NCBI GenBank assembly: GCA_963716425.1
Contig: OY970310.1
Span: forward strand, 1,539,577 to 1,603,576
Length of the DNA stretch: 64,000 nt
Direction: 5' to 3'
Source of the DNA: Candidatus Babeliales bacterium
Lineage (GTDB): Bacteria > Babelota > Babeliae > Babelales > JBFXEV01
Shown here one piece after another: positions 1,735-36,262 of the stretch. Position 1 is the first letter of the stretch. Every line of letters starts with the position of its first letter. The notes beneath the pieces are model-generated. The model was not told the origin of the DNA. It made no database searches and was given only the letters and a program-made list of their open reading frames with translations. The translations under genes and the position numbers were made by a program.

Positions 1735-3563
1735 TTATTCACCTTTTTTTAGAATTGCCATAAAGGCTTCCTGTGGTACGCGAACGGTACCAACTTGCTT
1801 CATTTTCTTTTTACCTTCTTTTTGTTTTTCAAGTAATTTTCGTTTACGCGTAGATATCGCCACCATAACATTTTGCAGTAACGTTTTTGCGTAGCGCAGT
1901 AATAGATTCACGCGCAATAATTTTTGCTCCAATGGCAGCTTGAATAGCAACTTCAAATAATTGGCGCGGAATTACTTTGCGTAATCGTTGGGTCAGTTCT
2001 CGCCCCATATAATATGCTTTATCGGCATGCACAATAGTAGAAAGCGCATCAACCGGTTTGCCATTGAGTAAAATATCCATTTTTACCAAATCTGATATTT
2101 GAAAGCCTGCTTCTTCATAGTCAAAGCTTGCATATCCAGAACTGAGTGATTTAAGTTCATCATAAAAATCTGTTGCTACTTCATTAAGAGGTAATCGATA
2201 TTTAAGAATAAGCCGTTCTTCAGAAAGATAGCTCATCTCATTTTGCTCGCCACGTTTCTCTTGGCATAAGTTAAGAACGACTCCAAGATATTGTTGTGGC
2301 ACAATAATAGTAGCATTGATAATTGGCTCTTATATGGCCTCAATAATGCCCGCATCAGGAAAATCTGAGGGGCTTTCAATATTAATTATTTCACCGGTAT
2401 TTTTAATATTTACTTTATATAAAACGCTCGGTGCTGTTGCAATGACATGAAATATTATATTCTTGTTCAAGCCGCTGCTTGAACACGTCCATATGTAAGA
2501 GGCCTAAAAATCCACATCTAAAGCCAATGCCAAGGGCCGTAGAGGTTTTCTTTTCAACCGTTACACTTGCATCATTGAGGGTTAATTTTTCAATGGCATC
2601 GCGCAATAATTCAAATTCAGAATTTTCTACCGGATAGATACCAGCAAATACCATAGGTTTTGCTTTTTTAAATCCAGGAAACGGCGTTCCCTTTTGCTTG
2701 CGATGGAAAATAGTATCGCCTACTCGTGCTTCTTTAACTGTTTTCATGCCGGTAATTACATAGCCAACTTGGCCTGCATAGAGTGCATGCATTGGTTCTT
2801 GGTCAGGGTACATGATCCCACACTCAAGAATTTCATATTCGTTACCGGTATGGGCAAGTTCAATCATGTCACCTTTGGTCAAACAGCCGTCTTGAACCGC
2901 CACCAAACAGATGACTCCTTTGTATTCATCATACCATGAGTCAAAAAGAAGTGCTTTAAGCGGAGCATCGTTATTGCTTTTAGGAGCGGGCATGCGCTCA
3001 ATAATTGCGCCTAAAATCTCGGTGATGCCAATACCTTTTTTGGCAGAGGCCATGATAAACTCTTTTTTCTCAAAGTCAAAAATTTGGAACATTTCTTTGG
3101 AGACACGGTCAATTTGAGCGGTAGGCAAATCAATTTTATTGATAACGGGTACAATGCTTAAATCTTGTTCAAAAGCCAAATAAAAGTTTGCCATTGTTTG
3201 GGCTTGTACCCCTTGGCCTGCATCAACCAAGAGCAGGGCGCCTTGGCAGGCATAGAGAGAGCGGGATACTTCATAGCTGAAGTCAACGTGTCCTGGAGTA
3301 TCAATCAGGTTTAATAAGTAATTTTGACCATTATAGGTGTATATCATTGAGGCAGTTTGTGCCTTCACGGTAATACCCCGTTCTTGCTCAACTTGGAGCT
3401 TGTCTAAAAATTGATCCTTTTTTGTTCTATCTGATAATGTTCCGGTGAATTCGAGTAACCGGTCAGAAAGAGTAGATTTGCCGTGGTCAATGTGGGCAAC
3501 AATAGAAAAATTTCTTATTTTATCAGGAGTAAATTGTTTCAAATCCAGCTGTTTGGGATCCAT
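1735..3563 (-). pseudogene. lepA: elongation factor 4 (LepA), disrupted by two +1 insertions and one in-frame TAA
   Basis: N-terminus [25 protein letters not shown] and NKID, with C-terminus ...[27 protein letters not shown]. The reading frame changes near 2447 and near 1851-1852, and there is an in-frame stop at 2330-2332 (..[25 protein letters not shown]). Confidence 0.85.
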
Positions 3564-3718
3564 AGTGCTCAGTGCTGCCTTTCGCTTATGAGTATTGGTT
3601 TAAGTGTATCAAATTGGGGTGATTAGTAAATGAAATGGCGTTTTAAAGAAGTGCTTACTTCTCTATGATCTCTGTGATAGACTTAATTGCATTAAACTCT
3701 CACATCGAAAGATTCACT

Positions 3719-4528
3719 ATGTACAAGAAATTACTTTTAATGCTAATGGCTGCTGGTCAATTAGTGGCGATGGAACCTGCTGACAGTTCTAAATCAGATA
3801 CAACGACCTGTAATTTTAAGTTGAATAAAAATGTAAGAATTATGCTTGCAAACAGGCGAACAATAGCATGGCCAGCAGAATCTCATCAGGTTACCCCATT
3901 CGAGCGGAGCATGGCACAGAAAATTTATGAGGATGGCCAGCAAAGCTTGAATACTCTTTTTGAGCAAGCCACAACTGTGCTTAGAGGCGATAATGTCGAT
4001 GACCAGGTTGCTTTTTTTGATGTGGTAATTAAAAAATTAACTATATCCGAGCATCTCCAGCATCCAATGGGTTATATGGTATCAAGAGGTCGGCTTGAAG
4101 GGGTGCTTCTTAGTTTGGCGTTGTATTGTCAGTTGCAAAACCAGGGCAACGGTACTCAGGGAATTTGGGATAAAGTGCTTGCTACTAAGCAATATATTGA
4201 TGCTCGTTCATTTCAAGATATCTCCCAAAAAGATAAACGTTTAATGTGTTGTATGTATAGGCGACTTAGCTTACATGAGAATTGTCCTAAAAAGGTGGCA
4301 TGTAGAAATTGTATTGGCCATGTGAGCGATCATATTGCAGAAAATGTCGTAGATAGCTGTTGCGCCGATAAAGTAAATTTGGGGCATGCATGCGATAAGT
4401 GTGCAAAAAGGATAAAATGTGATCTCTATGGGAAAGTGAAAAAATTAGTCTATGGCCTATATCATTTCGGAGTAGCTACTCAAAAAGCGGAGCATAAAGC
4501 GTTGATTGAATGGGTGAACGCTAAATAA
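3719..4528 (+). CDS. secreted Cys-rich (CxxC...CC...CxxC) protein, paralogue A
   Basis: Leader MYKKLLLMLMAAGQLVAME. The C-terminal half aligns with the next gene (LALYCQ / CRNC..CC..ACDKC / GLYHF / ALIEW). Confidence 0.65.
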   Translation: MYKKLLLMLMAAGQLVAMEPADSSKSDTTTCNFKLNKNVRIMLANRRTIAWPAESHQVTPFERSMAQKIYEDGQQSLNTLFEQATTVLRGDNVDDQVAFFDVVIKKLTISEHLQHPMGYMVSRGRLEGVLLSLALYCQLQNQGNGTQGIWDKVLATKQYIDARSFQDISQKDKRLMCCMYRRLSLHENCPKKVACRNCIGHVSDHIAENVVDSCCADKVNLGHACDKCAKRIKCDLYGKVKKLVYGLYHFGVATQKAEHKALIEWVNAK

Positions 4529-4721
4529 CGAGTAGGTATAAGAGAAAGATTATCTCGGTTTCAAGAAATATGCTTGGAGAATACAAATTAGAGTAATTAG
4601 TAAATGAGAAGGCCATTAAGAAGAGTCTTTTGTTTGAACGCGATCCTATGATACATTGGAAAGTGTGATAAATTGAAAATGGAGAATTTGGGAAAAACAT
4701 TTTTCTTGGTAGAGAGGGAGT

Positions 4722-5537
4722 ATGAAAAAGATAGGGCTACTATTTGCGTGTCTATCAATCGTTCCGATAAAATCAATGCAAAGATCAAGAAGTTGGTCCG
4801 CAGGACAAGGTGTTGAATCTCCCGTTCTTCGGCAACAGAGTATTGCAAATCCGGCGTATGGCAATGTGCAAGAACAGTTTGAAGATCAGGCAAAAGCACG
4901 AGAAGATCAATGGCGCCAGTGGAAAGTGCAAGCGCCACGCGCACTGCAAGCAGCTCCAGAAGAAACATTATTATTTTTTAAGCGAATAACTGATGATGTA
5001 GTTGAGTGGGGGTCATTACCTTTTGGAGAAACGACTGATTATTCTGCACAGAGGTTGTTTGCTGTAGCATTATTTTGCCAAACAAGAGATATGCTCATAA
5101 CAGCGCATAAAAAAAATGTTTCAGTGTGGAGCTTGTTAGATAACTGCAAGAAGAAGATTGAAGCAATGGATGCCGGATCGCTCACTGGGCAAGATCGTGC
5201 AATTATCTATCAAATATGCAGAGATGGGACAGTCGGTATGCATCACGATGATGAGCCATGCATGGGTAAAGCAACCATATGTAAAGATTGTAAACGGCTG
5301 ATTTCAGTGCTTGTATGCTTATCTACGATTGATCGGTGTTGCAAAGAAACTGCATTTCCTGCTGGTATAGTGAAAGGGTATGAAGGATATGCATGTCCAC
5401 CATGTACTGAGAAATTAAGACATAAGTTGCTGCTTCGTGTAAAAAGTCTTATTATTGGTTTTCACCAGTTTCAATTAGTACCTAAAACACCAGAAGATAT
5501 GGCGCTTGTGAAATGGGCAATTTGTTTTGGAAAATAA
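4722..5537 (+). CDS. secreted Cys-rich (CxxC...CC...CxxC) protein, paralogue B
   Basis: GAGGGA RBS and leader MKKIGLLFACLSIVPIKSMQ. The blocks VALFCQ / CKDC..CC..ACPPC / GFHQF / ALVKW parallel those of 3719..4528. Confidence 0.65.
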   Translation: MKKIGLLFACLSIVPIKSMQRSRSWSAGQGVESPVLRQQSIANPAYGNVQEQFEDQAKAREDQWRQWKVQAPRALQAAPEETLLFFKRITDDVVEWGSLPFGETTDYSAQRLFAVALFCQTRDMLITAHKKNVSVWSLLDNCKKKIEAMDAGSLTGQDRAIIYQICRDGTVGMHHDDEPCMGKATICKDCKRLISVLVCLSTIDRCCKETAFPAGIVKGYEGYACPPCTEKLRHKLLLRVKSLIIGFHQFQLVPKTPEDMALVKWAICFGK

Positions 5538-5543
5538 GTAATA

Positions 5544-5912
5544 CTACATTATGCCAAGTTTTTTACTCAGTTCATCAATTTCAACATTGCATGCGCCCAA
5601 TGCACTTTGTAAATACGTTAATTGTTTTCTTTGGTAGGCAAGTTGTAAATGTTGCAGCAAAGTTGTTCTTGCTGTAGCAAGGGTTTGCCCCTGCGTGCTA
5701 CTGTGGACTAAGCTTTGCAGATGTATGAAGTGAAGATCGCGCGTAGGTTTTTGGCCTTCCAGCTCCTTTCCAAAAAATGCTTCAATTGTTTCATTATGGG
5801 TAGAAACTTGTTGTGCGCAGGCAAGAATACTTTGCCATCCCTCAGGTTCTTGCATGCCATGGATTTGCATTATGGCGGTGAGGATAAGAGTCGGCAAGAT
5901 TGATTTGATCAT
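5544..5912 (-). CDS. small secreted hypothetical protein
   Basis: 122 aa ORF with leader MIKSILPTLILTAIMQIHGMQE; no family recognised. Confidence 0.5.
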   Translation of the reverse strand: MIKSILPTLILTAIMQIHGMQEPEGWQSILACAQQVSTHNETIEAFFGKELEGQKPTRDLHFIHLQSLVHSSTQGQTLATARTTLLQHLQLAYQRKQLTYLQSALGACNVEIDELSKKLGIM

Positions 5913-6069
5913 GGAGAGTCTCCTTTATAATATGCTTTTTTCTTTTACTATGCCAGCTAGAAAGTACATTTGCAACAGCCCCCAAAGAATGCTATAACGG
6001 CTTGTGAAAATATGTCAAATCAGGTATAATTAAGGTATCTCAAATTTGAACCTTTAAAGGATAGAGCCC

Positions 6070-8768
6070 ATGGCCGTGACAAAAGATCAGACAAATAATA
6101 AGCGGGTAGAACCGATACTTATTGAAGATGAATTAAAGAATTCGTTTTTAGACTATGCTATGTCGGTTATTGTAAGTCGTGCACTACCTGACGTACGTGA
6201 CGGTCTTAAGCCAGTGCATCGCCGTATTTTATACTCCATGAACCAATCTGGGTTTCATTATAATAGACCATATCATAAATCTGTGCGCATCGTGGGTGAC
6301 GTACTTGGTAAGTATCATCCACATGGTGATAGTGCCGTTTACAACACTATGGTTGGTATGGTGCAAGAATTTTCAAAACGGTATCCATTACTCGATGGCC
6401 AAGGAAACTGGGGTTCGGTGGACGGTGATAGTCCTGCTGCCATGCGTTATACTGAAGTGCGCATGCAAAAAATTTCTCAAGAAATTTTGGCCGATTTAGA
6501 TAAAGAGACAGTACCATTTGTGCCCAACTTTGATGAATCTACAGTAGAGCCAGTTATTTTGCCAAGCGACTTCCTAACTTGCTTGTTAATGGTACTGCAG
6601 GGATTGCAGTGGGTATGGCAACATCTATCCCTCCGCACAATCTAGGAGAAATTATTGATGCTTGTCTTGCATATCTTGCAAATGAAGATATTTCTGACGA
6701 CGAACTCTTTCAGATAGTGCCTGCTCCTGATTTTCCTACCGGTGGTATTATTTGCGGTCGTGCAGGGATTGTAAAAGCATATAGAACGGGTAGAGGAAAA
6801 TTAGCCTTGCGCGGGGTGGTCGCAGACAGAAGAAACCAAAAAAGGTTCTGCAATCATTATTACTGAACTTCCCTATCAGGTGAATAAGTCAGAACTTATT
6901 ATCAAGATTGCCGATTTAGTCAAAAATAAAGTTATTGAAGGTATTTCTAATATTCGAGATGAGTCTGATCAAAAGGGTATGCGCTTAGTGATTGAACTTA
7001 AGCGAGGAGAAATTCCACAAGTTATCTTAAATCAGTTATATAAATTTACTACATTGCAGCAAAACGTTGCTATCCTGATGCTTGGGCTTCTTGATAATAA
7101 GCCTATTGTTTTCTCGCTGCGTGAACTGATTCGTGAATTTGTATACCATCGCCAAGAAGTAGTTTATAAGCGTACTATATATGATCTTGAAAAAGCAAAG
7201 CAGCGCGAACATATATTGAAGGCTTTATCATTGCGCTTGATAATATTGATGAATTAGTTGCGCTTATTAAAAAATCAGAATCTCCTGAAATAGCTATTAC
7301 AGCAATGCATGCACGGTTTGCATTTAGCACTGAGCAAGCAAAAGCTATTTTGGATATGAGATTGCAACGGCTTACTGGGCTTGAGCAAGATAAGATTCGC
7401 CAAGAATTAGAAGATATTAAGGGACAAATTGCATTCTTAAATTCAATTGTTCAGGATAAAGCAGTGTTAATTGGTGAGGTAATCAAAGAACTTAAAGAAG
7501 TGCGAGGAACTCTATGGCGATGAGCGTAGAACACGTATTGAGGGTCCTATTGATATTCTTACTGAAGCTGATTTAATTCCTGATGAAGACGTGGTGGTCA
7601 CACTTACTCATAAAGGGTACATTAAGCGAGTACCGCTTGCTACCTATGGCGTACAGCATCGTGGTGGTAAAGGTAAGATGGGCAATGACAGCGCTTGATG
7701 AAGGCGATGACATGGTGCTAGATGTATTTGTTGCAAAAACGCATGATATGTTGCTCTTCTTTACTAATTTGGGTCGTGTATATAGCTTACAAGTGTTTGA
7801 AGTGCCTGAAGCTTCTCGTATGGCAAATGGTCGTGCAATCGTAAATCTATTGCCATTGCAAGAAGGTGAGCACGTAGTAAAATTATTGCGTGCACGAGAT
7901 CTTGATGGCAAAAGCTTGGTGATGATTTCCAAAAATGGTGTTATCAAACGAACTGAAGCTTCTCAATTTGCAAATATTCGAGCTACCGGTATTAGAGCGT
8001 GCTACGCTCCGTGAAGATGATATGCTGGTATTCTGCGCATTAAGTTCCGGACATGATACTATTGTTATTGCAACAGCAAAAGGGCAAGGTATTCGCTTTA
8101 AGGAAGACGAAGTACGTATTATGGGTCGCCAAGCGGCTGGTGTACGCGGTATTCGTTTGCGTAAAGGTGATTACGTAGTTGGTATGCAAATAGTTCCTAC
8201 TGATGACGTGCGCGATATCTTGTTTGCAACATCTGGTGGTTATGGAAAACGAGTGCGCCCAGAAGACTTCCGGGTAGCCCATCGTGGTGGTTATGGTGTG
8301 CGCACTATTCCTACTGATGCGCGCAACGGGATGGTGATTGGACTTGCTGCAGTATCAGAACAATCTAATATCTTGCTCATTGATGAAGCCGGTAAAATGA
8401 TTCGATTATCACCTTCAGAAATTCGTACAATGGGTCGCCAAGCAAAAGGTGTTCGCCTTATTAAGTTGGATAAAGATCAACATCTTGCAGCGATGGTTGC
8501 ATTTGAGGAAGAAGCTCCAAATGGATCTGATGAAAATCATAACCAAAATGGTGATGCTGGCCCTCATAAAGTAACTGGTGCGGTTAAAGCCGCTGCTATT
8601 ATTGACGACGAGACGGATATTGAATTAAAAGCAATTGACCAAAAAGATATTCAAGTCGTTTTTGATGATCCAGATTATGAAGATGAATATGGTGACGAAG
8701 AAGACGATGATGAAGAAGAAGAAGTTGAAGATGATGCGGCGGATGACGATGATGCCATGGTCTTTTAA
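6070..8768 (+). pseudogene. gyrA: DNA gyrase subunit A, reading frame broken about six times
   Basis: GyrA motifs are spread over six ORF fragments in three frames ([74 protein letters not shown] and the C-terminal beta-pinwheel repeats). Frame switches lie at about 6564, 6822-6825, 7218, 7506, 7684 and 7997-8001. The C-terminus is a D/E-rich tail. Confidence 0.85.
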
Positions 8769-8843
8769 TATTGAAGGCACCGAACATCCCGAGTGTTCTA
8801 CGTGGCATTAGCTAAGTAGCACATATCGGGGGATAATTTTTGT

Positions 8844-9983
8844 ATGCAACTTACGCCCGAAAACATTTTATTACATATTACACTTATTGATGGACTTGGT
8901 CCTGCGGTGGTAAAGCGTTTACTCGCTTGTTTATTGCCGGACCAACTTCCTCTTCTTTACGAATTTGGCATATCAGATTTGATGCATCGTTGCCAGTTGC
9001 CAGAAAATATTGCCAAGAGATTATACGATGGCTTGCAGAATATGGCTGCCTTTGAACGTGAATTACAGCTCTTGAAAGATCATAACCTTGTGTGGATGAG
9101 TCTTCTTCATCCTAATTTCCCCCCGTTACTCAAAGAAATTCATTTGCCTCCTATAGGCCTTTATATTCGTGGTAAAATTCCAGCAACAATGTCTTGCTTG
9201 GCGGTAGTTGGTTCTCGCGCCGCCAATTTGTATGGGCAGCGCGTGGTTGATCGATTAATACCAGAACTGTGTGCGCAAGGTATTGTTATTGTAAGCGGTG
9301 GTGCTTACGGCATTGATATGATGGCGCATAGTGCAGCAGTGGCTGCCAGATGCCCTACTATTGCGGTGATGGGTAGTGGGCTGTTACAAATTTCTCGCGA
9401 AGACAATGTAAAACTATTTCCTCGCATAGTGCAAACTGGTGGTGCGATAGTAAGTCCTTTTCCACTCACTATGGATGCATTACCCGGGCATTTTCCTGCA
9501 CGCAATCGCATTATTGCTGGTCTTTCACAAGGATGCTTGGTGGTACAGGCTGCCAAGAAAAGTGGCGCGCTTATTACTGCTACCTTTACACTTGAACAAG
9601 GCCGAGAAGTATTTGCAGTTCCCGGAGCAATAGATGATGAGCTGTCTGCAGGGTGCCATAACTTATTGCGCCAAGGGGCAACTCTTGTGGAAACTGCAGC
9701 AGATATTACCGGGGTAGTACCTATATTCACGAGCAAGCCTATGCAAATGACTATTGGTGCTCAAGATGAACTTATTAAAGATGTTTCAGTTAAAATACAA
9801 GAAAAACAGGGCACGGGAAATTTAGTGGATGATTCTTTGGTAGCACTGTGCGCCAAGCCAGTATCTGTTGATGATCTTGCAAGTAAACTTCAGCTTGATC
9901 TTTTTGATGTGCAGACACGGCTTTTTGAACTCCAGATGGCAGGTAGGGTGCAACAAAACTTTATGGGATTGTGGCATATTTAA
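8844..9983 (+). CDS. dprA: DNA processing protein DprA/Smf
   Basis: VVGSRAANLYG...IVSGGAYGIDMMAHSAA...FPARNRIIAGLSQGCLVVQAAKKSGALITA, plus a C-terminal winged-helix-like region. Confidence 0.85.
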   Translation: MQLTPENILLHITLIDGLGPAVVKRLLACLLPDQLPLLYEFGISDLMHRCQLPENIAKRLYDGLQNMAAFERELQLLKDHNLVWMSLLHPNFPPLLKEIHLPPIGLYIRGKIPATMSCLAVVGSRAANLYGQRVVDRLIPELCAQGIVIVSGGAYGIDMMAHSAAVAARCPTIAVMGSGLLQISREDNVKLFPRIVQTGGAIVSPFPLTMDALPGHFPARNRIIAGLSQGCLVVQAAKKSGALITATFTLEQGREVFAVPGAIDDELSAGCHNLLRQGATLVETAADITGVVPIFTSKPMQMTIGAQDELIKDVSVKIQEKQGTGNLVDDSLVALCAKPVSVDDLASKLQLDLFDVQTRLFELQMAGRVQQNFMGLWHI

Positions 9984-10075
9984 ACGTGTCGAGGTTCTGT
10001 GTCTGTCTGCTATGCATTCTTAAAGTGTATGCTACCGCCGGCGCCGTCTCGGTCTATATTTTGTAGGAGTGTTTT

Positions 10076-10861
10076 ATGATGAATAGGCTTTTTATAAATA
10101 CGTTTGATGAATTGGATGTATCAAAAATTAAGAATTTGCTAGAAGCTGGTGTTGCTGTTAATGCTAGAGATGAATATGATACTACTGCATTGCACGTGGC
10201 ATCCATCCAGGGTCGTAAAGAAATAGTTGAATTGCTATTACAGAATGGTGCAGATGTTCATGCAAAAGATAAGGATGATGAAACTGCATTATTGCAGGCC
10301 GCGGCTCATGGCCATACAGAAGTCGTTAGGGTATTATTGACACATGGCGCTGATGTTACTGTGCAAGACAAATATGGTTGGACGGTTTTGCATGAAGCAG
10401 CGTATAATGGCAGCAAAGAAACAGTTGGATTATTGCTTGCCCATGGCGCTGATGTGAATGCAAGAAACGATATTGGTGAAATAGCTTTGCACCGGGTTGC
10501 CCAAAAGGGTAATAAAGAAATGGTGGAATGGTTACTCGTCCATGGTGCCGATGTGAATGCTGAAAGTTTTGCTAAAACAGCCTTGCATATGGCAGCATTC
10601 CATGGCCATATTGAAGTTGTGGAATTTTTGTTGAAATTTGGTGTGGAGCAATCGATTTATATGGATATTTTTCCTGCTTTGCATTATGCGGCGTATAATG
10701 GATATAAAGAAATAGTTCAATTATTATTGACACATGGCGCTTATGTACATGCAAAAAATAAATTAGATAAAACAGCGCGTATGATTGCACTCGAGGAAGG
10801 GCATACCGAAATTGCACAGTTGCTTGAGCAGTATGAGCAGAAAAGGCCTCTCTTTCGTTGA
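10076..10861 (+). CDS. ankyrin-repeat protein (about 7 repeats), no leader peptide
   Basis: Repeated TALH.AA..GH.E.V..LL..GADVNA units; AGGAG RBS. Confidence 0.85.
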   Translation: MMNRLFINTFDELDVSKIKNLLEAGVAVNARDEYDTTALHVASIQGRKEIVELLLQNGADVHAKDKDDETALLQAAAHGHTEVVRVLLTHGADVTVQDKYGWTVLHEAAYNGSKETVGLLLAHGADVNARNDIGEIALHRVAQKGNKEMVEWLLVHGADVNAESFAKTALHMAAFHGHIEVVEFLLKFGVEQSIYMDIFPALHYAAYNGYKEIVQLLLTHGAYVHAKNKLDKTARMIALEEGHTEIAQLLEQYEQKRPLFR

Positions 10862-10890
10862 GTTGCAATTCCACAAATAAAGGTAATTCT

Positions 10891-11547
10891 ATGCATACAC
10901 CACAAAAAGCAACTATTATAATGATTGGTGGGTTATCAAGTTCGGGGAAAACTTCCACAGCAAAAGCCTTGCAAGCAGCACTTGCTGCACAAAATAAACC
11001 ATTTGTGCATTTGCCTATAGATGAATTTATTGGTCTTCTGCCACCTGAGTGGTTTAATCCCGATACAAGTAAGGATATTAAACAAAACCCTGATGGTATT
11101 GTACTCAAGCGAGTTGATGATGAAAAAGGCCCAAAAGTTATCATAGAGCTTGGACCTATTGGCATGAAGTTGGGTCAAGCGTATTTGCCTGTTGTGGCTA
11201 CTATTGCTTCTTATGGCTCAGATATTATTATTGATGGCGTATTTAGTACTCCTTATCTACTAGGAGCTGTTAAACTTTTTAGTAATTATCGTGTCTATTG
11301 CATTAGTATTCGCTGCCCACTAGAAATTACTGAGATGCGTGAACGGCAGCGGGGTGCAATTGGTGGTTTTATTGGACTATCTCGTGGTTATGCTGAAACA
11401 AGTGATGTTCACAGGCATAGTCATTATGATCTTCTGGTTGATACTAGTTCAAAAACTCCTGAACAAGCCGCACAGGAAATTCTCGAATTTACGATGCAAG
11501 AACGCGAGCCTCAAGCACTGAAGAAACTCTTACAAGCAACAAAATAA
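10891..11547 (+). CDS. chloramphenicol-phosphotransferase-like (CPT family) P-loop kinase
   Basis: IIMIGGLSSSGKTSTAKALQ Walker A, IIIDGVF and a RERQRG-type segment, colinear with Streptomyces CPT as I recall it. The ATG at 10891 is preferred over the listed TTG. Confidence 0.55.
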   Translation: MHTPQKATIIMIGGLSSSGKTSTAKALQAALAAQNKPFVHLPIDEFIGLLPPEWFNPDTSKDIKQNPDGIVLKRVDDEKGPKVIIELGPIGMKLGQAYLPVVATIASYGSDIIIDGVFSTPYLLGAVKLFSNYRVYCISIRCPLEITEMRERQRGAIGGFIGLSRGYAETSDVHRHSHYDLLVDTSSKTPEQAAQEILEFTMQEREPQALKKLLQATK

Positions 11548-30772: not shown

Positions 30773-33115
30773 ATGAATACAATGAAGTTGTTTGAAAAAC
30801 AAAATAATGGATTACGTATTGCGCGATATTCGCTCTATCAATTATCAACGGTAGCAGCATGCGGTAGTGCAGCATTATTGATTGCACTGGCATTATATGG
30901 ATATGATGCACGAGATGCTTCATGGTTTTTTGTGCGAACAAAAATGAATGTGCCTCACAATATGTTAGGTTCTTTTGGCGCACATCTTGCAGGCCTTCTG
31001 ATGTATTTGTTTGGATCTGCATCATACGCGATTCCGTTAACGTTAACTTATTTTGCTTATTTTTTTGCTGTGGGCATTACCTGGCGCAAAGAAATAGATA
31101 GATGTGTTGCATGCGTGGCACTTTTGCTCGTTCTTGCAGCGTTGCTTCACACGTATGCAATTGATCCTCTCTATAGCGCCGCACCTGGCGGCGTCATTGG
31201 CAATTTGACGTACAGATTTATTCTTGTGTTTGCCGATCCTACCATTGTTTTTTTATCGCTGCACGTATTGCTTTTTGTAAGCTTGGTGCTTCTTTCTCGA
31301 CTGGCATGGGTCGGACCCATGCGTAGGGTGGGTCATGGTATTGAAACAGCTTTACATTCTGCCCTTGCACGCAAAATGGTTGCCGCTGCCGTCAGTATGG
31401 TGTCTTCTATTTCAAATGGTATTGCTCGCTTCTTTGGGTGGGTGTGGCGCTTGCTCTCTGGAAAGTTAATTGATGAACGTCGTGACATTGTACCTCTTGA
31501 GTTTGGTGAAATTGTAGAACAAGTAGTACACGATACAACTGATGCACGGTTTTGGAAAAATGCCTATGGTCAATCTAGTAATGAATTACCAGAGACGTAT
31601 GCGCCGGCAGAAATGCAACAGCCTCAATCTCAAAAAACAACGTTTGAAGCACCACCTGGTTTTTTTAAGAAGATGATGAGCATGCAAGAGGAGCGTAAGG
31701 AAAAAGAATCCGCATCAGCAGCACTACATCAGTATCAATTACCAAATCCTGCACAATTTACCATGCAGCATGTTGAAAAACAATCTGCTGATGATCAAAA
31801 ATTGCATGATACGCGAGCACGCATGCTTGAACTCAAACTTGCACGTTTCGGTATTACCGGCAAGGTGGTTGCCATAAAACCAGGGCCAGTGATTACGTTA
31901 TTTGAATATGAACCTGATATTGATTCTAAAGTCAGTAAAATAATAGCACTTGAAGATGATTTGGCATTAGCGCTTGAAGCAGTGAGCATTCGCATTATTG
32001 CACCGATACCAGGTCGTTCTGTTGTTGGTTTTGAAGTTGCAAATAAAGACCGTGCAACTGTGCATTTATCATCAATCATACAATCAAAAGCGTATGCACA
32101 ATGTACGGCGCATTTACCATTAGTGCTCGGTCACGATATCGTCGGCAATCCAAGCATTGTTGATCTTGCGGACATGCCCCATTTGCTTGTTGCAGGATCT
32201 ACCGGTTCTGGTAAATCTGTTGCGCTCAACACAATGCTCGTGAGTTTGTTGTATCGCTGTACGCCAGAACAATTACGTTTAATATTAATAGATCCTAAGC
32301 GATTAGAATTTGCATCATATTCAGACATTGGACATTTAATTTTTCCTATTGTGACAGATCCAAAAACAGCAGGTCCTGTGTTACAATGGGTAGTGCGTAC
32401 TATGGAAGATCGTTATGAAATTATGGCAACAGTTGGTGTGCGTAATCATCAAGCGTATCAACGTTTGTGTGCAACACAGAAAGATTTAGAACTAATGCCG
32501 TATCTTGTAGTGATGATTGATGAATTATCTGATTTAATGATGACAGCTGGCAAAGAAGTTGAAGCACTTATTGCGCGCATTGCACAAATGGCACGTGCAG
32601 CGGGTATTCATATGATTGTGGCAACGCAAAGGCCATCAGTTGATGTTATTACAGGCTTGATTAAAGTAAATTTTCCAAGTAGAATTTCATTCCGTGTGAC
32701 ATCTAAAGTAGATTCGCGTACAATTTTAGATTGTGTTGGCGCAGAGAAATTACTCGGTAAAGGTGACATGCTCTTTTTAAGTGCATCATCGGCGCTTATG
32801 CGAGTACATGGCGCGTATGTTGGACATAAAGAGGTCAGTTCATTGGTTGAATATATTCGTACACAACAACCACCGCAGTATCTTGATATTCAAGAAGAGC
32901 TTCCATTAAAAAAAGGTTCTCTACTTGATGCAGATGATGCGTTGTATCAAGAAGTGCTTGCATTTGTATATTCCACTGATCAGATTTCAATTTCATTACT
33001 TCAACGTCGATTTAGAATAGGTTACAATCGATCTGCACGGATCATGGAAACATTAGAGTCAGAAGGTCTTATTATGCCGTCTGATGGTTCTAAGATGAGA
33101 AAAGTTATTAAATAG
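30773..33115 (+). CDS. ftsK: DNA translocase FtsK
   Basis: N-terminal TM helices, a linker, then VAGSTGSGKSVALNTML, MIDELSDLMM and a gamma-domain-like C-terminus (LLQRRFRIGYNRSARIME). Confidence 0.9.
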   Translation: MNTMKLFEKQNNGLRIARYSLYQLSTVAACGSAALLIALALYGYDARDASWFFVRTKMNVPHNMLGSFGAHLAGLLMYLFGSASYAIPLTLTYFAYFFAVGITWRKEIDRCVACVALLLVLAALLHTYAIDPLYSAAPGGVIGNLTYRFILVFADPTIVFLSLHVLLFVSLVLLSRLAWVGPMRRVGHGIETALHSALARKMVAAAVSMVSSISNGIARFFGWVWRLLSGKLIDERRDIVPLEFGEIVEQVVHDTTDARFWKNAYGQSSNELPETYAPAEMQQPQSQKTTFEAPPGFFKKMMSMQEERKEKESASAALHQYQLPNPAQFTMQHVEKQSADDQKLHDTRARMLELKLARFGITGKVVAIKPGPVITLFEYEPDIDSKVSKIIALEDDLALALEAVSIRIIAPIPGRSVVGFEVANKDRATVHLSSIIQSKAYAQCTAHLPLVLGHDIVGNPSIVDLADMPHLLVAGSTGSGKSVALNTMLVSLLYRCTPEQLRLILIDPKRLEFASYSDIGHLIFPIVTDPKTAGPVLQWVVRTMEDRYEIMATVGVRNHQAYQRLCATQKDLELMPYLVVMIDELSDLMMTAGKEVEALIARIAQMARAAGIHMIVATQRPSVDVITGLIKVNFPSRISFRVTSKVDSRTILDCVGAEKLLGKGDMLFLSASSALMRVHGAYVGHKEVSSLVEYIRTQQPPQYLDIQEELPLKKGSLLDADDALYQEVLAFVYSTDQISISLLQRRFRIGYNRSARIMETLESEGLIMPSDGSKMRKVIK

Positions 33116-35768: not shown

Positions 35769-36032
35769 ATGGAAATAACTGAAGTGAAGGTCTACCCGGT
35801 ACGCGATACTGGAAGGCTTAAAGGCTATGCAACGTTTGTAATAGACAATTGCTTTATAGTACGCGACGTAAAAATTATCGAGGGAGAGAAAGGCTTATTT
35901 GTTTCAATGCCTTCCCGTAAGAAGCAAGACGGTTCATTTCGTGACATTGTGCATCCATTAAATGCAGAAACACGAACACTCATTGAGAAAATGGTCGTTG
36001 AGCAATTTGAAAAACTGGAAAAGGCCGCCTAA
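35769..36032 (+). CDS. spoVG: SpoVG family protein
   Basis: MEITEVKVYPV...LKGYATFVIDNCFIVRDVKIIEGEKGLFVSMPSRK...DIVHPLN. Confidence 0.85.
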   Translation: MEITEVKVYPVRDTGRLKGYATFVIDNCFIVRDVKIIEGEKGLFVSMPSRKKQDGSFRDIVHPLNAETRTLIEKMVVEQFEKLEKAA

Positions 36033-36059
36033 AAGTAATAAGCACCTTAAAGATTTTGT

Positions 36060-36134
36060 TGGGGCGTAGCCAAGTGGTAAGGCATCCGGTTTTGGTCCGG
36101 ACATTCGGAGGTTCGATCCCTTCCGCCCCAGCCA
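36060..36134 (+). tRNA. tRNA-Gln (anticodon UUG), CCA encoded
   Basis: Cloverleaf read by eye: acceptor tggggcg/cgcccca, anticodon stem tccgg/ccgga with loop ttTTGgt, T-arm ggagg-ttcgatc-ccttc, then gCCA. It closely resembles E. coli tRNA-Gln. Confidence 0.85.
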
Positions 36135-36262
36135 GGCATTTGCCAAAGCCAATCAGTAAAGGTTAAATACTGGCTGGAGTATATGATACTAGAAAATGCT
36201 AATCACGCCGAGCAAATGACTGGCAAGCCGGTTTTTCAATAGCCATTTTTAAATTATATTAG

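Follow-up and report, generated by a model that had tools for sequence, protein, structure and literature searches.

Indels are the commonest error of long-read sequencing, as stated in PMC8445201. According to the same paper, allelic variants that lie close together in a collapsed diploid assembly cause reads to be misaligned and introduce INDEL errors that truncate open reading frames (ORFs). In PMC9426551, interrupted ORFs are used as an indicator of residual indel error in long-read metagenome-assembled genomes. The frame breaks described here resemble the residual indel errors of long-read or hybrid metagenome assemblies, a phenomenon described in these papers, in being mostly 1 nt long and of both signs, in breaking conserved and essential genes, in lowering completeness estimates and raising contamination estimates, and apparently also in being absent from the short-read contigs of sister strains at the four sites that these bridge. 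They differ from that pattern in that they fall in strongly patchy showers of 1–5 kb and are not evenly spread.

The gene that drew attention to these breaks is a gyrA, and its closest described counterpart is the GyrA of gyrase-only bacteria. With six indels discounted, nothing about it is unusual. A single A-subunit gene is accompanied by a single gyrB, relatives likewise have one A-subunit gene, and the protein has the full N-terminal breakage-reunion domain, six C-terminal blades and an acidic tail. The gene lies in a stretch of 64,000 nt (hereafter the window) from the genome of a Candidatus Babeliales bacterium of the amoeba-symbiont type (GenBank assembly GCA_963716425.1, contig OY970310.1, positions 1,539,577 to 1,603,576). 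Of all the sequences compared, this assembly alone carries the six indels, which come without any other trace of decay, and indels of the same class hit many essential single-copy genes of the same genome.

The gyrA locus and its frame breaks

The gyrA gene occupies window positions 6070..8768 on the plus strand, with a length of 2699 nt as assembled compared to 2697 nt in the orthologue from a genome of the same genus. A complete GyrA can be traced across six ORFs in three frames (6070..6645, 6579..6866, 6880..7257, 7305..7523, 7591..7698/7583..8014 and 7935..8768), and the single uninterrupted reading frame by which a GyrA would be recognized was not found in the assembled sequence due to six 1-nt indels. 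The pieces matched the Pfam profile PF00521, which corresponds to the breakage-reunion domain of the GyrA N-terminus, at profile positions 1–142, 135–214, 229–345 and 375–431, all above the cut-off, so that the profile was tiled over 1–431 of its 432 positions. Blades of the PF03989 family were detected at 7591–7695 (one), 7583–8011 (two) and 7935–8765 (three), and the same-genus GyrA contains six PF03989 stretches. The AAMRYTE stretch, which we take to carry the catalytic tyrosine of GyrA, lies inside the translation of the first ORF (6070..6645). An HRGGKGK stretch is also visible in the translations, and such a GyrA-box-like RGGKG, together with the blades of the C-terminal beta-pinwheel, presumably distinguishes GyrA from ParC. 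An earlier reading made from the sequence alone (the sequence-only reading) had described the GyrA hallmarks as distributed over six ORFs in three frames, a description that holds.

The C-terminus of the protein (8500–8768, plus strand) is a long and strongly acidic Asp/Glu tail, which is also present in the same-genus orthologue. Contigs from a soil metagenome, run X1, show length variation or loose ends at around 8697–8736, in a repeat-like part of this tail. Downstream of gyrA lies a putative DprA-like gene (8844..9983, 379 aa), named from its sequence, and the same neighbour is found in the same-genus genome (373 aa). Upstream (3665–5537, plus strand) there are paralogous Cys-rich proteins of around 270–300 aa with apparent signal peptides, and a similar Cys-rich pair occupies the equivalent place in the same-genus genome (contig L013, 5047–6769, minus strand).

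To locate the breaks, the intact same-genus gyrA (L013, 1307–4003, minus strand, 898 aa) was used as reference in a global nucleotide alignment. Identity was found at 2184 of 2695 positions (81.0%), with exactly six gaps, each of 1 nt, and these six indels were the only frame-shifting differences between the two genes. The sequence-only reading had proposed about six 1-nt indels, near 6564, 6822–6825, 7218, 7506, 7684 and 7997–8001, and all of these sites proved to be within a few bases of an alignment gap. A third relative, represented by a metagenome contig (L171) that encodes a protein 89% identical to the same-genus GyrA, showed the same six 1-nt differences from the window, and the other gaps within gyrA in this comparison, among those listed, were all multiples of three. 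With respect to both relatives, and on the plus strand, a base is missing at break 1 (6562..6573, where its placement is ambiguous within 12 nt) and at break 3 (7218..7220), and an extra base is present at break 2 (6820..6822), break 4 (7505), break 5 (7680..7682, an extra G in a GGG run) and break 6 (8004). The net change across the gene is +2, and consequently its first and last thirds are in different frames. Apart from 7680, which is in GGG, every site is in a run of length 1, in agreement with the earlier remark that none lies in a long homopolymer.

Frameshifts of this kind could be real and yet be bypassed by programmed ribosomal frameshifting or transcriptional slippage, giving rise to a full-length GyrA. 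The one point in favour of such recoding is that the conserved GyrA sequence remains traceable from one side of each break to the other. Within this single gene, recoding would have to operate six times, with shifts in both directions (+1 and −1), and five of the sites are in runs of length 1. Moreover, no site is conserved, since the same-genus genome, the metagenome relative and 19 relatives all have plain single ORFs, and 14 sites in secA, along with the other patches described below, would call for the same explanation. We therefore assign to recoding a practically negligible probability.

Selection, copy number and sister strains

For the analysis of selection, the gyrA frame was corrected by skipping the extra bases and reading the missing ones as unknown. 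The corrected gene has 899 codons without any internal stop, and 779 of its 899 residues match the same-genus GyrA. Nucleotide differences between both genes were distributed as 96, 54 and 361 over codon positions 1, 2 and 3, respectively, corresponding to dN of 0.089, dS of 0.996 and dN/dS of about 0.09. This ratio and the absence of stops indicate that the full-length frame was selected until effectively the present, and purifying selection on it has been strong for practically all the time since the two species diverged.

A six-frame search with PF00521 of the whole 1,865,056-base single-contig genome revealed neither a second gyrA nor a parC, as all four matches corresponded to the gyrA locus. 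In 20 relatives, exactly one match was found in 19 genomes, with an open frame of 833–925 aa and no stops; the match was absent from the remaining genome, which is 96% complete. Comparison with orthologous loci, which had been suggested as a check, thus revealed one intact gyrA in 19 of the 20 relatives and an intact gene of 898 aa in the same genus. The state of gyrB had also been raised, and a single PF00204 locus was found with an open frame of 821 aa and no stops. As a side observation, gyrase is apparently the sole type IIA topoisomerase in this order, with no parC in the genomes searched (that of the window and the 20 relatives).

These results refute, for the assembled genome, the possibility that the gyrA copy is a redundant pseudogene, with an intact gyrA or parC paralogue elsewhere, which is close to the option of a very recent inactivation with a second gyrA contemplated by the sequence-only reading. 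No support for it was found: the search of the whole genome leads back to the gyrA locus only, and the relatives are also single-gene. Neither relaxed selection nor a functional substitute, as expected of a pseudogene, was detected, given a dN/dS of about 0.09, the lack of stops and the lack of a second copy. The chance that this explanation is correct is minimal.

Sixteen public runs have sequence words in common with the stretch, and X1 has the largest share, a third of these words. No RNA run was listed for the stretch, and no conclusion follows from this. The stored contigs of four runs (X1, X2, X3 and X5) were compared with window positions 4000–11000; X1 and X2 are soil metagenomes from different studies. 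Short contigs from X1 and X2 were mostly 95–100% identical to the window and bridged four of the six break sites, and the unbroken form was found at all four (7220, 7505, 7680 and 8004). An X2 contig has one more base behind 7220, contigs from both X1 and X2 are without the extra base at 7505 and at 8004, and an X1 contig is without the extra G at 7680. Breaks 1 and 2 were not bridged by near-identical contigs, and the pieces contributed by X3 and X5, few in number, short and either conserved or diverged, cover none of the six sites. At 7680 the shorter form was supported by 4.51 of the 6.49 of X1 depth, the remaining X1 depth being without this difference to the window, and a low-depth X1 contig might carry the extra G of the window. 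Over the 7 kb compared there was just one further indel: an X1 contig is 2 nt shorter at 8837, in the spacer that separates gyrA from the DprA-like gene, a difference that represents either strain variation or another consensus error, harmless in both cases.

Within gyrA, 11 of the 16 substitutions shown between window and contigs were synonymous. As substitutions are mostly synonymous, the X1 and X2 contigs come from real sister strains under selection and not from noisy copies. At the four sites bridged, they show an intact gyrA in very close relatives, which is evidence on these relatives and not on the window's own strain. Substitutions in the gyrA patch were also considered as a sign of poor sequence, an idea that was dropped because they are mostly synonymous and look like strain variation.

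Genome-wide distribution of broken genes

To place the locus in the context of the whole genome, ORFs of at least 100 aa from the same-genus genome were searched against the window's genome, yielding 927 ORFs with a match. A cut-off of at least 60% identity and at least 70% coverage left 660 orthologues, amounting to 672 kb of aligned coding DNA of the 1,865 kb genome. An orthologue was scored as broken when no open frame covered 90% of its aligned span in the window's genome. By this definition 30 of the 660 orthologues were broken, compared to 7 of 690 in the reverse control, where the seven failures were all of 149–267 aa and most of them borderline (open fractions of 0.77–0.90). According to their Pfam names, the broken set includes secA, topA, dnaE, alaS, tyrS, uvrA, lepA, gyrA and the ribosomal proteins S3 (rpsC), L23 and L27, in addition to a uvrA-like ABC ATPase, a TLC nucleotide transporter, assorted regulators, methyltransferases and two proteins without a Pfam family. 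Each of secA and topA has one locus in the genome, and both are in pieces. The simultaneous breakage of gyrase, SecA, topoisomerase I, the replicative polymerase and two tRNA synthetases makes a real loss not credible for a cell. Stop counts from raw tblastn chains were also obtained, but were about equal in both directions (44 versus 36 genes) and were treated as noise from over-long ORF calls.

Two further broken orthologues lie in the window. The lepA gene (1738..3572, minus strand), immediately upstream of gyrA, has two 1-nt insertions, near 1853 and 2445, which leave ORFs 1844..2302 and 2415..3563, whereas its same-genus orthologue (92.5% identity) is intact with 610 aa. The orthologue of a 141-aa protein without a Pfam family (35828..36135, minus strand) is broken by a 1-nt deletion near 36048. 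Both cases belong to the same error class as gyrA. The sequence-only reading had described the surroundings of gyrA as clean, and this holds for ftsK, whose 780-aa frame is open, but not for lepA or for the 141-aa orthologue. Given the patchiness of the errors, intact genes nearby do not show that the breaks in a gene are genuine. Separately, ftsK shows three 2-nt alignment gaps within 55 nt with respect to the same-genus gene (31394–31449 in the window, 1570970–1571025 in the genome), which are net in frame. As the frame stays open, they probably reflect natural variation in a linker, or the alignment itself, and would not be an error.

A first census at the nucleotide level gave 126 events in 63 genes, many of them at alignment ends or in pairs that compensated each other a few dozen bases apart. 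For the final count, only gaps whose length is not a multiple of three in the 30 broken genes were considered, and compensating pairs within 40 nt were dropped, leaving 71 frame-shifting gaps. These comprise 33 of +1 and 24 of −1, they are mostly of 1 nt, and all four bases are involved. Most of them (46 of 71) are outside any homopolymer, a clear difference from the classic error in homopolymer runs. The spacing was below 500 nt for 42 of the 70 successive gaps, and five genes hold 42 of the 71: secA (14), the TLC transporter (9), the uvrA-like gene (8), gyrA (6) and topA (5). Single or double indels were found in 21 further genes. As the genome averages one event in every 9.5 kb of the coding DNA aligned, the five clusters had Poisson probabilities ranging from 5e-6 to 9e-20, the value for the six events in gyrA being 5.9e-7. 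Therefore, the earlier statement that a uniform error rate does not explain the state of gyrA was right, but gyrA is not singled out, since patches of the same kind occur in secA, the TLC transporter, the uvrA-like gene and topA. It is this finding that settles the interpretation of the breaks.

The indels are packed in a handful of patches of 1–5 kb, at around 0.4–0.8% indels. Four such showers are located outside the window, at approximately 36.0–38.9, 1032.8–1035.4, 1362.4–1364.7 and 1465.7–1471.9 kb of the genome, and cover the uvrA-like ABC ATPase with its neighbours, secA, topA, and the TLC ATP/ADP transporter with adjacent genes (at least nine indels). Broken and intact orthologues had almost the same median nucleotide identity (0.748 and 0.746, P = 0.32) and did not differ in length (P = 0.66) or GC, so that gene content does not seem to govern where the patches fall. 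On the same grounds we rejected a cross-mapping of reads from other community members onto conserved genes, as broken genes equal intact ones in identity, length and GC. Among genes of at least 700 aa, 7 of 43 were broken, the higher number of breaks among long genes being attributable to their greater likelihood of overlapping a patch.

The pattern of the indels is also informative about a biological origin. Babeliales are host-dependent bacteria with reduced genomes, and gene decay is common in such genomes, so the frameshifts could be real if the genome was sampled from a lineage, or a sub-population, that began to decay very recently. The source would then be cells that are not viable, relic DNA, or a clone undergoing mutational meltdown. 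The breaks are indeed present in the deposited sequence, and one low-depth X1 contig may agree with the window at 7680. Against such a decay, the corrected gyrA frame has a dN/dS of 0.09 and no stops, no fewer than seven indispensable single-copy genes are affected at once, and sister strains are unbroken at four of four bridged sites. Natural bacterial indels lean towards deletions and towards runs, whereas here insertions are no rarer than deletions, and most of the indels are outside repeats. Moreover, the indels form showers of 1–5 kb without extra non-synonymous change. We consider recent decay improbable, and the non-viable or degenerating lineage put forward as an option by the sequence-only reading very unlikely, on account of purifying selection, the absence of stops and the unbroken sister strains where bridged. 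Even less probable is that the showers themselves are real, as bursts of random +1 and −1 mutations over 1–5 kb (for instance from error-prone repair-patch synthesis) that have just inactivated gyrA, secA, topA and further genes. Were this true, the assembly would have caught a Babeliales clone at the moment of mutational collapse.

Probable consensus errors and their consequences

Taken from sequence comparison, the most satisfactory explanation is that the six breaks in gyrA are consensus indel errors of the assembly and that the gene is very probably an ordinary, functional, single-copy gyrA. Of the options considered by the sequence-only reading, that of a locally poor sequence is the one supported by the census, by the selection signal and by the contigs of sister strains. 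The gyrA gene would lie under one of a handful of unevenly spread error patches of 1–5 kb, which may be stretches where the consensus came from too few or conflicting reads. Such patches could be produced by a local dip of coverage in an assembly from noisy reads, by a polishing step that reached most of the genome and skipped them, or by co-occurring strains piled into one consensus.

Regarding the last of these candidate causes, X1 contigs had 14 mismatches to the window over about 550 positions inside the gyrA patch compared to 16 over about 2140 positions outside it (Fisher P = 0.001), in a comparison based on a few contig pieces in which 9 of the 16 outside differences come from one contig. 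This excess leans towards a mixture of strains as the sub-mechanism, with the pieces being few. The collapsed-haplotype consensus errors described in PMC8445201 offer a parallel, since the X1 sister strain diverges from the window most strongly within the gyrA patch. The differences are that this paper concerns a diploid eukaryote and that the X1 comparison rests on few contig pieces. The quality values of the genome (completeness of 93.7% and contamination of 3.4%) fit with marker genes split by frameshifts.

Patchy consensus error in this single-contig, metagenome-type genome of Candidatus Babeliales (Dependentiae/TM6) is almost certainly the origin of the breaks. This constitutes a data-quality flag, as a genome that looks finished nevertheless has at least 30 of 660 comparable genes falsely broken, among them core functions of replication, secretion, translation and repair. 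The errors come as showers of 1–5 kb outside homopolymers and not as an even sprinkling. Pseudogene counts, metabolic reconstruction, marker-gene phylogeny and arguments on gene loss in symbionts would all be misled if based on this genome. As for the organism itself, the broken gyrA is almost certainly not a biological feature, and this member of the Babeliales would have a normal gyrase.
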